A DNA stretch of 44,573 nucleotides from a virus. A program made the translations under genes and the position numbers. The notes under the pieces are model-generated. The model was not told the origin of the DNA, searched no databases, and saw nothing but the letters and a program-made list of their open reading frames with translations. Of the stretch, positions 38,427 through 39,965 are shown piece by piece. The stretch lies in UHGV virus genome UHGV-0024513; one strand, written 5' to 3'. Positions within the stretch are counted from its first letter, which is position 1. Each line of letters starts with the position of its first letter.

Positions 38427-39965
38427 TCAAGATGTGTTTCCTCTCCAACGGTAGGCTCTACGAAAGCCAGCTGCTTCTGCTTCCTTTATTGTATTACAAT
38501 ATAACTCTCCCTTGGCTGTTTCTATTTTTACCTTATCATAACACTGGTCAAATGGAAGATGATATATCCTTTCTCCCGTTGCCCCAATATTACACTTTAT
38601 ACATGGAAACATTTGAAACTTTTTATTTTCTATGATTTCAATGTTAAGCATTTTTGCAACTTCATGAGCAGTATCCGATAAGTGGCAAGAGGTAATAAAT
38701 ACGCCAGTTACATTTATTTTTTGCTCTATTAGTGAACTTTGATTACATTTTTTCTTTTCACTGAGTGAATAGGTAATACATGTTCCAAAAAGTTGAAAAA
38801 TGTGTTTTTCATGTATTGTTTTTTCTTTTGACCAATATTTACACTGCACTATTTTAGTTGCTTTATTTTTTTTTACAATCAAATCTCTTCCCATATCTTC
38901 AAAGCCTTTGAGTGCTCCAAAATATGTGACATCATATCCTTGTGTTTCGTATAAATAACCTATAAATCTTTCGTAATCTCTACCTATTTCCCAATTTGTT
39001 TTGTGTTTTTTCCAGTATCTATCGAGAGATATTTGATATTTTTCCGTATTATTTAATGAGCTCCATTCAGATGAAGATAGAAAGCGTTGAGCTTCATCTT
39101 TATATTCGTCATCAGATTGTGGATTACAAGTAATTTTTTCATCTGGTGCATCTTTGAAATCAGCAAGCCAAGGGAATAAGTATTCATAATATTTAATAAT
39201 GCCTTTATATATTTTATTTTGTTTTTCAGCTATTGCAGTACGCCTGCTAAATTCCTTTACTTTTTCAGCAGCAACAAGTGCAGGATTTTTTTTCTGTTCT
39301 AACTGAATTGAAACAATGTCTCCAAGCTCTTTTATAAATGAAGCATAGTATTGAGCAATCCAAGGAAATCCTTGTGTTTTTTCTTTAAATAATTTTTCTT
39401 GGATTTGTTTTGTTTTTTCAAATTCTTCAAATTCTTTTTTTAGTGCTATTCTTTTTTTCTCAGTTTCCTCTTCTCTTGCAAAAATATATGCTTTTTCTCT
39501 TTCTAGCTCTTTTTTTTTCTCTTCTAGGAGTAAATTTACTCTTTTTTCTATATCAAATTTATTTTTTGCTATAATTCCATCTTTTTGTATTATAATATTA
39601 GATAATTTTGAAATATCATTTTTTAAAATTCTAACTATTTCTGCGCTGTGTAATGCGGGGTTTGCTTTGTATCTTAAATAACTTTCCATAGCAGATGCTT
39701 TTTGTGACGCTATTTTTGAATAGTATTCTCCTATCCATGGAAAAGATGATGTCTTTTCATTTATGATTTTTTCTTTTATTATCAATTCTTGTTTTAATTC
39801 TTCTATTTTTTCTTCTTTTTTGTTTATTTCTATCATGCGATTATATAAATTTTCTCTATCGATATTAAGTTTATCTTTTTCATTATCTAATTTTTTAGAG
39901 CGGTAGAAGAGTACTATAAAAATAGGTATTATTAAAAGATAAAGAAAAACTATGATTCCTTTCAT
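38427..39965 (-). CDS. membrane-anchored Mrr-type (PF04471-like) restriction endonuclease domain protein with duplicated coiled-coil module; AT-rich moron
   Basis: N-terminal TM segment. Two copies of the ...FPWI(G/A)(E/Q)YY...KNPAL... module. GRDLIVKKNKATKIVQCKYW is an Mrr catalytic-domain D...QxK motif. C-terminal YH...C...EA..AGFR tail. Confidence 0.6.
   Translation of the reverse strand: MKGIIVFLYLLIIPIFIVLFYRSKKLDNEKDKLNIDRENLYNRMIEINKKEEKIEELKQELIIKEKIINEKTSSFPWIGEYYSKIASQKASAMESYLRYKANPALHSAEIVRILKNDISKLSNIIIQKDGIIAKNKFDIEKRVNLLLEEKKKELEREKAYIFAREEETEKKRIALKKEFEEFEKTKQIQEKLFKEKTQGFPWIAQYYASFIKELGDIVSIQLEQKKNPALVAAEKVKEFSRRTAIAEKQNKIYKGIIKYYEYLFPWLADFKDAPDEKITCNPQSDDEYKDEAQRFLSSSEWSSLNNTEKYQISLDRYWKKHKTNWEIGRDYERFIGYLYETQGYDVTYFGALKGFEDMGRDLIVKKNKATKIVQCKYWSKEKTIHEKHIFQLFGTCITYSLSEKKKCNQSSLIEQKINVTGVFITSCHLSDTAHEVAKMLNIEIIENKKFQMFPCIKCNIGATGERIYHLPFDQCYDKVKIETAKGELYCNTIKEAEAAGFRRAYRWRGNTS

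Follow-up and report, generated by a model that had tools for sequence, protein, structure and literature searches.

A membrane-anchored Mrr-type nuclease in a Bilophila prophage and its relatives in phage lysogeny modules

The virus genome UHGV-0024513, a temperate podovirus-type prophage or phage genome of Bilophila wadsworthia, was analyzed as a single window of 44,573 nt (the whole stretch of DNA). Near one end it carries an AT-rich gene for a membrane-anchored Mrr-type nuclease. The protein belongs to a family that appears to be a second version of the membrane-bound defense nuclease represented by SNIPE of Escherichia coli, to which it shows no homology. According to the reading that we favor, and to which we give an even chance, the nuclease would be made in the lysogen and would cut foreign DNA during its entry at the membrane. 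That the family serves some form of defense against phages or mobile genetic elements, with abortive infection and a type IV-like activity counted in, is fairly probable. The support for a defense role is circumstantial and comes from the position of the family in phage lysogeny modules, the anchoring of the nuclease either in cis or in trans, the AT-richness of its genes, and parallels with SNIPE and with the Vibrio protein Epona. A preliminary description of the window had suggested superinfection exclusion or abortive infection for this gene. These observations strengthen the suggestion, although it is still from them that we infer the function.

Anatomy of the nuclease

The open reading frame (ORF) is exactly the one given in the preliminary description. 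Residue numbers below are true numbers that include Met1, which was left out of the alignment of 80 homologs and of the AlphaFold2 (AF2) model. The parts of the gene are as follows.

38427..39965, minus strand: the whole ORF (ORF listing), with an ATG start and 512 amino acids (aa); a membrane-anchored Mrr_cat nuclease of an uncharacterized family
39903..39959, minus strand: N-terminal transmembrane helix, residues 3-21, with a mean Kyte-Doolittle value of 2.86, followed by basic RSKK; predicted N-out/C-in
39630..39839, minus strand: module copy 1, residues 43-112 (SSFPWIGEYY...NPALHSAEIVR), an additional, incomplete copy by which the stalk is extended
39153..39455, minus strand: module copy 2, residues 171-271 (QGFPWIAQYY...NPALVAAEKVK...YYEYLFPWLADF), the canonical family unit
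38616..38984, minus strand: Mrr_cat domain of the PD-(D/E)XK type, residues 328-450 (Pfam PF04471), with catalytic candidates E332/E340, D361 and Q374-C375-K376
38451..38603, minus strand: C-terminal "sunset"-like domain, residues 455-505 (IKCN..ERIYHLPFDQCYD..EAEAAGFRRAYRW)

The Mrr domain had been proposed from the motifs GRDLIV and IVQCKYW. Both are present, and the region matches PF04471 with an E-value of 1.9e-9 (38.1 bits, against a cutoff of 21). Among the 80 homologs, 78 match Mrr_cat_2 and 71 match Mrr_cat. Residues E332, E340, D357, D361, C375 and K376 are invariant in the 80 sequences, and Q374 is found in at least 90% of them; the catalytic signature of E in helix 1, D in strand 2 and (E/Q)xK in strand 3 is thus present. 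In the AF2 model, the domain has a predicted local distance difference test (pLDDT) score above 90 and folds into a restriction endonuclease-like α/β core. From the profile, the invariant residues and this core, we infer that the protein is a nuclease, the activity itself being predicted. A Foldseek search of the PDB matched the nuclease core alone, to MspJI (E 2e-4), EndoMS/NucS, AspBHI, AF1548 and the CRISPR ancillary nucleases Cdn1 and Can2. Searching BFVD in the same way returned just short uncharacterized viral "restriction endonucleases", and phmmer against PDB sequences gave nothing meaningful for the protein.

The N-terminal helix had likewise been noticed at the outset, followed by a coiled-coil region containing two copies of a module of about 70 aa. 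The AF2 model, computed from the 80-sequence alignment (mean pLDDT 86), consists of long helices (one of 93 residues), the α/β nuclease and a small β-plus-helix tail. The long helices thus stand, and the term coiled coil itself rests on these predicted helices. The duplication also stands: residues 43-112 and 171-237 share 39% identity over 70 aa (pairwise BLASTP, E 2e-14). Because the region is rich in K and E, the duplication was checked by shuffling, and the Smith-Waterman score of 128 compares with 32 ± 5.6 in 2,000 shuffles (maximum 68; z = 17). The description needs refinement for copy 1, which is partial. Copy 2 has two FPW motifs, 64 residues apart (motif spacing in 120 homologs), and K196, P201, Y260 and P265 are invariant in the 80-homolog alignment. 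Copy 1 lacks the second motif, "YYExLFPWL", that the canonical unit carries at this distance past the first, and in each copy the part with strong conservation is a core of about 40 aa (15/40 identical).

A canonical member of the family has 377-420 aa, with an N-terminal transmembrane helix, one helical unit with two FPW motifs, Mrr_cat and the tail. Around one-third of the top 150 representatives have 540-730 aa and align to the profile over two separate stretches. Lengthening of the stalk by duplication thus recurs in the family and is no peculiarity of the Bilophila gene.

The tail, described beforehand as YHLP..C..EA..AGFR and found to contain YHLP...EAEAAGFRR, is the most conserved part of the family. 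It has a near-invariant IKCN..GEKIYHLPFDQQYD..EAE.GFRRAFRW, and K457, C458, H469, P471, D473, Y476, D477, G500 and R502 are invariant in the 80 sequences. By profile comparison it appears to be a divergent member of the NCBIfam "sunset" domain: the query scores 24.1 bits with NF051437, for which the cutoff is 27 (E 2.8e-5), and 77 of the 80 homologs match at E ≤ 0.01, the best at 4.9e-7. The tail also aligns, with 52% identity over 55 aa, with the canonical sunset copy of the Microvirga thermonuclease WP_157934781.1. The latter is a 229-aa thermonuclease of the staphylococcal nuclease (SNase) type, with a signal peptide and a C-terminal sunset domain, encoded on a Microvirga ossetica plasmid (L168:2479-3168). 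It has the sunset domain in common with the family but differs in its SNase fold, its secretion and the lack of a stalk. Two or more unrelated nuclease folds, located in different compartments of the cell, thus carry a domain of the sunset type. Its presence on both suggests a nucleic-acid-binding accessory role, and the tail is probably such a domain.

PHROG 21287, annotated as "membrane associated protein", has the same tail, and no literature on the sunset domain was found. A comparison with the N-terminal domain of Ada found only one invariant Cys, so there is no Cys4 zinc site. An hmmsearch of the tail against the PDB returned no Ada chain, and hhalign gave a probability of 10% with an approximate Ada sequence.

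The catalytic domain invites a comparison with Mrr-type IV and MspJI-type enzymes, which also have Mrr_cat with D...QxK, a likeness limited to the nuclease core. The query differs from them in being membrane-anchored and in having neither a reader domain nor a methyltransferase partner. In a membrane-anchored type IV-like enzyme, the sunset tail or the stalk would read modified or otherwise marked foreign DNA, and the anchor would be secondary. The best structural matches, MspJI and AspBHI, are indeed modification-dependent, and NCBI names a close relative of the protein "restriction endonuclease". No methyltransferase recurs beside the family gene, as type IV enzymes predict: none adjoins the gene in the window (ORF listing and Pfam), and none is among the recurrent neighbor clusters at the 154 loci described below, although isolated methyltransferase matches occur at a few. 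By the same count, the nuclease is not part of a restriction-modification pair. We nevertheless regard the type IV-like alternative as improbable. The matches to MspJI and AspBHI run through the nuclease core only (template modeling scores of 0.16-0.19), and the conserved anchor in cis or in trans is left unexplained. Pfam finds no Mrr_N, SRA or other modified-base reader domain in the query or the 80 homologs, and the query is therefore not a strict Mrr-type IV enzyme.

Distribution, genomic position and anchoring of the family

A word-indexed search found more than 2,200 relatives of the protein, and an exhaustive profile search through 1.84 billion cluster representatives gave 1,154 clusters (50% identity) at E ≤ 1e-30. 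When one genome per species was scanned, 420 loci were confirmed among 185,579 species. The loci come from nearly every bacterial phylum, lineages of the Candidate Phyla Radiation (CPR) and one archaeon, with about 40-50% identity, and the family is thinly and unevenly spread. In IMG/VR, a member is found on at least 103 viral contigs. On plasmids, tblastn detected just four Hymenobacter replicons (H1-H4), plus tail-only matches to thermonucleases, and megablast of the nuclease gene against 5,426 E. coli genomes gave no match. At the Hymenobacter loci (L054, L060, L063 and L077), a conserved gene comes before that of the family member on the same strand, and its product of about 415 aa has no Pfam match and contains an "AFEVEKS" (ExK-like) motif. 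This pair may be a lineage-specific two-gene system.

A PADLOC scan of the nuclease protein, named as a check in the preliminary description, matched 0 families at E ≤ 1. A literature search on the sunset domain, on Mrr combined with membrane, prophage or defense, and on lysogeny-module nucleases did not find the family described. The earlier idea that the domain combination may be undescribed holds as far as PADLOC 2.0, Pfam, the names in NCBIfam, the PDB, INPHARED and the literature open to searching are concerned. It has also become narrower, since the family is widespread, the domain combination and the duplication both occur beyond this locus, and membrane-bound single-protein defense nucleases are already known.

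Genomic context was compared at 160 fetched loci, of which 154 (78 viral and 76 genome loci) have a recognizable family gene. Neighboring ORFs were clustered by BLASTP, and the identities of the clusters were checked with Pfam. The recurrent neighbors are listed here.

XRE/CI-like HTH_3 gene upstream: viral 59/78, genome 14/76
Tyrosine integrase nearby, mostly downstream: viral 27/78, genome 13/76
Large serine recombinase nearby: viral 11/78, genome 1/76

A recombinase of either kind is found near the gene at 38/78 viral loci. The CI-like repressor is upstream on the same strand at 55/154 loci, 31 of which also have a same-strand recombinase downstream, and where a repressor-like gene is the immediate same-strand neighbor (position -1; n = 50) the median gap is 38 nt. 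The position of the family is the lysogeny module of temperate phages. This module is transcribed in the lysogen, and known superinfection-exclusion genes, such as sie2009 of lactococcal phages and ltp of TP-J34, sit there. The family gene is more AT-rich than its flanks at 145/149 loci (median -8 points). Abi_2 genes are present in the same slot at six loci, and the slot therefore behaves as a hotspot for defense cargo. These Abi_2 (AbiD/F-like) genes match at E 1e-40 and lie one or two genes downstream, at L109 (+2) and at five more loci, mostly viral.

About three-quarters of the genome loci are not obviously prophage. Scattered neighbors of these copies match PADLOC defense models, among them a type II methyltransferase, a methyl-directed restriction endonuclease, a dGTPase, AriA, SoFic, a reverse transcriptase, Cas1, HEC-01 and PDC candidates. 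With so many loci outside recognizable prophages, the role may be a broader one, directed against whatever DNA enters. A nuclease carried by phages and integrative elements could also serve the element's own life cycle or act on other mobile DNA, through degradation of host DNA, processing of DNA at the membrane or exclusion of conjugation and transformation. The window gene itself, which lies beside Rha and the Xis/Int module and not beside a repressor, would suit such a role. We consider it quite improbable. Co-orientation and tight spacing with the CI-like repressor at the 50 loci point to lysogenic expression, and none of the cultured phages of INPHARED, virulent ones included, has a family member. 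Moreover, degradation of host DNA during lytic growth would need no membrane tether.

A fused N-terminal transmembrane helix passes the hydrophobicity threshold at 107/154 loci. For 19 members that lack it, a protein of 86-155 aa that starts with a transmembrane helix is encoded upstream at a spacing of -58 to +8 nt. At all 13 of the loci where the partner combines a transmembrane helix with Zn_ribbon_Top1 (E 1e-9 to 6e-16), the nuclease has no transmembrane helix (13/13; L015, L016, L020, L027, L028, L039, L046, L061, L065, L071, L074, L078 and L086). Two of these, L020 and L074, are outside the 19, the partner helix being below the threshold or one gene further upstream. The partner at L078 is a 151-aa protein with an N-terminal transmembrane helix and a C-terminal topoisomerase-type zinc ribbon. 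Such pairs look like a two-gene form, with an anchor that comes in trans and has a DNA-binding zinc ribbon of its own. Unrelated small transmembrane partners without a zinc ribbon are found at L032/L068, at L051/L056 and with P0120. P0120 (71 contigs; L002-L007) has no transmembrane helix, and a 125-aa transmembrane protein ends 1 nt before its start.

Most of the remaining "anchor-less" members have a shorter hydrophobic N-terminus below the threshold, and only about seven loci (5%) are without an anchor. The split forms fall into two main clades plus singletons. Three of them have a fused form as nearest relative, so the state of the anchor has changed more than once. The complementary anchoring in cis and in trans looks selected for, and it is the strongest internal evidence that tethering belongs to the function.

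Topology was analyzed in 185 N-terminally anchored members by comparing the flanks of the helix with a stalk baseline. The N-terminal extension has a median of 2 residues and is on average acidic (ME, MD), and it is followed by an uncharged or hydrophobic stretch with a median of 21 residues. The next eight residues contain 0.31 K + R per residue, against 0.18 in the stalk. By net charge, C-in is favored in 140/185 members, with 30 tied and 15 reversed; this replaced a count of K + R only (175/190 C-in), which is biased by the K/E-rich stalk. The nuclease is predicted to face the cytoplasm as a single-pass N-out/C-in protein. The Cys4 zinc ribbon of the trans anchors requires the cytoplasm and supports this topology.

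Alternatively, the N-terminal segment could be a signal anchor, and the nuclease would then degrade DNA outside the cytoplasm. A sunset tail also ends the Microvirga thermonuclease with its signal peptide, and PHROG 21287 combines the same tail with its membrane annotation. Such a location is, however, extremely unlikely given the short acidic N flank, the 21-residue stretch, the K/R-rich C flank and the preponderance of C-in over reversed members. No basic n-region of the Sec signal peptide type is found in the anchored members, about half of the members have an odd number of cysteines, and a Cys4 zinc ribbon such as that of the trans partners would be unusual in the oxidizing periplasm.

The gene in its prophage

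The nuclease gene has a G + C content (GC) of 0.287, compared with 0.52 in the window and 0.515 in the flanks, and the trough in the sliding GC profile matches the extent of the ORF. A composition unlike that of the phage backbone had been part of the preliminary description, as had the Rha antirepressor next door, and both are borne out. The gene is horizontally acquired prophage cargo. A 97% identical protein, WP_347288614.1 of B. wadsworthia, is the one named "restriction endonuclease" by NCBI. Between the two, the ratio of nonsynonymous to synonymous change (pN/pS) is 0.39, with 24 differences, 0 of them at invariant residues; the gene is thus intact and mildly constrained. The prophage that carries WP_347288614.1 (L001) has about 97% DNA identity to the window over 27.5-40.4 kb and is divergent thereafter. 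The signals and neighbors of the gene are as follows.

39971..39976, minus strand: Shine-Dalgarno-like AGAGGG, 5 nt 5' of the nuclease ATG, read from the sequence
40058..40089, minus strand: terminator-like hairpin and T-run, about 100 nt 5' of the nuclease ATG and on the same strand
37410..38144, minus strand: Rha-family regulator (Pfam Phage_pRha, E 1e-30), the next gene downstream, on the same strand and separated by 282 nt
40162..40395, plus strand: HTH_17 (AlpA/Xis-like) gene, divergent from the nuclease gene (Pfam HTH_17, E 7e-7)
42322-43518, minus strand: tyrosine integrase (Pfam Phage_integrase, E 3e-23)

The hairpin (40089->40068), found in a consensus scan, has a 9-bp stem with 6 GC pairs and is followed by TTTTTT. 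Its predicted role would be to shield the gene from upstream transcription. Matches of a sigma-70 scan within the nuclease ORF were set aside, as they reflect AT-richness.

Apart from the integrase and the Xis-like HTH_17 gene, the window encodes a T7-type head-tail connector (E 1e-117), a terminase, a tail spike with an S74 chaperone, a nozzle protein, a T7 gp14-like internal virion protein and a CII-like regulator. The ends of the prophage are not defined within the window, because a search for an attachment-site (att)-type direct repeat that links the first 14 kb to the integrase end gave just one 13-nt chance match. A tRNA-Leu(GAG) gene is present at 5716-5785 (minus strand), and no att-type direct repeat joins it to the integrase end.

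Several further features of the window were observed. A perfect (CT)35 microsatellite at 7391-7460 lies inside an AT-rich island (about 7000-8600, GC about 0.36). It yields a low-complexity (RE)n / (SL)n ORF at 7189-7530 (minus strand), beside the putative CI/Cro/CII switch region at 8164-9734. The repeat could be a slipped-strand switch for phase variation, or it could be a simple repeat in a second island of foreign composition. At 10660-10756, within a DUF6291 gene (10391-11317), a 30-bp unit is repeated 3.3 times (91% matches); this iteron-like repeat may be a replication origin. A second nuclease, of 259 aa, is encoded at 13705-14484 (plus strand), just upstream of the terminase genes; it contains DUF559, a Vsr-like endonuclease domain, and gives a weak PvuRts1I-like match.

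The virion module ends with a polyvalent protein of 2,453 aa (29696-37057, plus strand). It has an N-terminal LPD22 domain, a weak match to ART-PolyVal (ADP-ribosyltransferase) near residue 940 and an HEVQH (HExxH) motif. L001 has a homolog of 2,150 aa, in which nothing is collinear with the window segment 32454-33352, a difference that suggests the exchange of an internal cassette. Between the Xis-like gene and the integrase, at 40505-42093 (plus strand), are four ORFs without Pfam matches, including a Gly-rich membrane-like protein of 200 aa and a Cys-rich protein of 142 aa. The stretch is missing from the otherwise 97% identical L001 and is therefore a second variable cargo slot.

Parallels with known systems and possible function

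SNIPE (PD-lambda-1) of E. coli consists of a transmembrane helix, a variable N-terminal region, a DUF4041 domain that binds DNA and the phage tape measure, plus a nuclease of the GIY-YIG type (Saxton et al., Nature 2026; PMC13190303). Its N-out/C-in topology was shown experimentally, it is toxic without the transmembrane helix, and it cleaves phage DNA during injection (PMC13190303). SNIPE tells self from non-self by location and provides a direct, non-abortive defense (PMC13190303). The family resembles it in being a single protein with a transmembrane helix near the start, an elongated helical cytoplasmic part and a C-terminal nuclease. In both, the N-terminal region varies in length among homologs, and a minority of homologs have no transmembrane helix. 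Near the anchor, SNIPE homologs (PspB/FtsB-like) and the query both give weak matches, in the query to PspB (E 0.017 with Pfam, 0.0018 with NCBIfam).

The topology that is experimental in SNIPE is, in the family, predicted from flank charge and length. The two also differ in the nuclease fold, GIY-YIG in SNIPE and PD-(D/E)XK here, and only the family has the FPW stalk, the sunset domain and separately encoded anchors. DUF4041 has no match at E ≤ 1 in the query and none at E ≤ 0.1 in the 80 homologs, GIY-YIG (T5orf172-type) is absent from the query and the 80 homologs, and the PADLOC model of SNIPE is unmatched. Homology of the stalk to DUF4041 was considered and rejected, there being no Pfam or PADLOC signal in the 80 members.

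Epona, from a cassette of the Vibrio cholerae chromosomal integron, combines Mrr_cat with a two-transmembrane holin domain and has anti-phage activity (bioRxiv 10.1101/2024.07.02.601686). It is almost confined to V. cholerae, and Epona itself is active only in E. coli (bioRxiv 10.1101/2024.07.02.601686). Like the query, it joins an Mrr_cat nuclease to a membrane-spanning N-terminus. The differences, in a comparison made by description only, are the two-transmembrane holin domain as opposed to the single helix, FPW stalk and sunset tail found here, and a near-confinement to one species as opposed to a spread over nearly all phyla. No holin family was found in the 80 members.

The superinfection-exclusion proteins Sie2009 (lactococcal), Ltp (Streptococcus thermophilus phage TP-J34) and SieA of P22 block DNA entry without a nuclease domain. 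They share with the family the position beside repressor and integrase, the membrane association and the carriage by prophages, but they are unrelated to it in sequence, and only in the family is a nuclease attached. Zorya and Kiwa are membrane-embedded multi-protein defenses that target DNA at the site of phage entry (PMC12904381). They are multi-gene systems with motor or sensor proteins, whereas the query would act alone, or its relatives with one small partner.

In the favored reading, the nuclease would be expressed in the lysogen and kept at a distance from the nucleoid by its anchor in the inner membrane. The long helical FPW stalk, lengthened in the Bilophila protein by the extra partial copy, would position or gate the nuclease, and the sunset tail would bind DNA. 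Incoming DNA would be cut at the membrane, and the lysogen, and hence the prophage, would be protected by superinfection exclusion or defense. Self and non-self would be distinguished by location and not by sequence or modification, as is the case for SNIPE.

Several observations weigh against this proposal. The nuclease gene of the window does not adjoin a CI-like repressor, the switch region being at about 8.1-9.7 kb. It is placed between the Xis-like/integrase module and Rha and not in the repressor-to-integrase slot typical of the family. A sigma-70 consensus scan of the interval from the hairpin to the ATG found no convincing promoter. Neither megablast of the locus nor tblastn detected a relative among the cultured phages of INPHARED. 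The defense-like neighbors of the non-prophage copies are scattered and were not counted as a statistical enrichment. With no PADLOC match and no homology to SNIPE, the mechanism rests on analogy. Lastly, the evidence fits the cutting of incoming DNA and a triggered degradation of self DNA alike.

The latter would make the protein an abortive-infection effector, with the tethered nuclease inactive until a phage cue and then, once activated or released, degrading host and phage DNA. The cue could be a perturbation of the membrane or a phage protein that binds the FPW stalk, and the cell would die to the benefit of the clonal population. The same evidence from anatomy and context applies here, to which may be added the Abi_2 genes in the slot. 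Mrr_cat is, moreover, the killing effector of Avs, NLR-like and Lamassu systems, and most of the Vibrio integron defense cassettes tested in native V. cholerae halt growth or lyse the cell at high multiplicity of infection. Abortive infection is still unlikely in our view, since the protein has no recognizable sensor domain and no protease or release mechanism. A permanent 21-residue transmembrane helix or a separate anchor fits localization better than release, and SNIPE, the closest in layout, defends directly.

The cutting of entering DNA at the membrane would, in its fullest form, amount to convergence on the SNIPE principle, in which location serves to tell self from non-self. This version would combine a PD-(D/E)XK nuclease, an FPW stalk tuned by duplication, a DNA-binding sunset tail and a swappable anchor in an entry-point defense carried by prophages and islands throughout the bacteria, including the CPR. 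We put this forward tentatively, as a possibility that is somewhat doubtful as a whole. If true, injection-site nucleases would be a general class and not a single family. Likewise, if the family works like SNIPE, the location strategy would be general, with two or more separate origins that made use of different nuclease folds.

PADLOC 2.0 does not detect the family, and its members are annotated just as "restriction endonuclease". It is common in the lysogeny modules of gut-associated prophages. It offers a first functional context for the sunset domain, and its fused and separate anchors and one- and two-module stalks are natural experiments on the mechanism. In the gut pathobiont B. wadsworthia, the nuclease is a candidate prophage-borne determinant of phage resistance.

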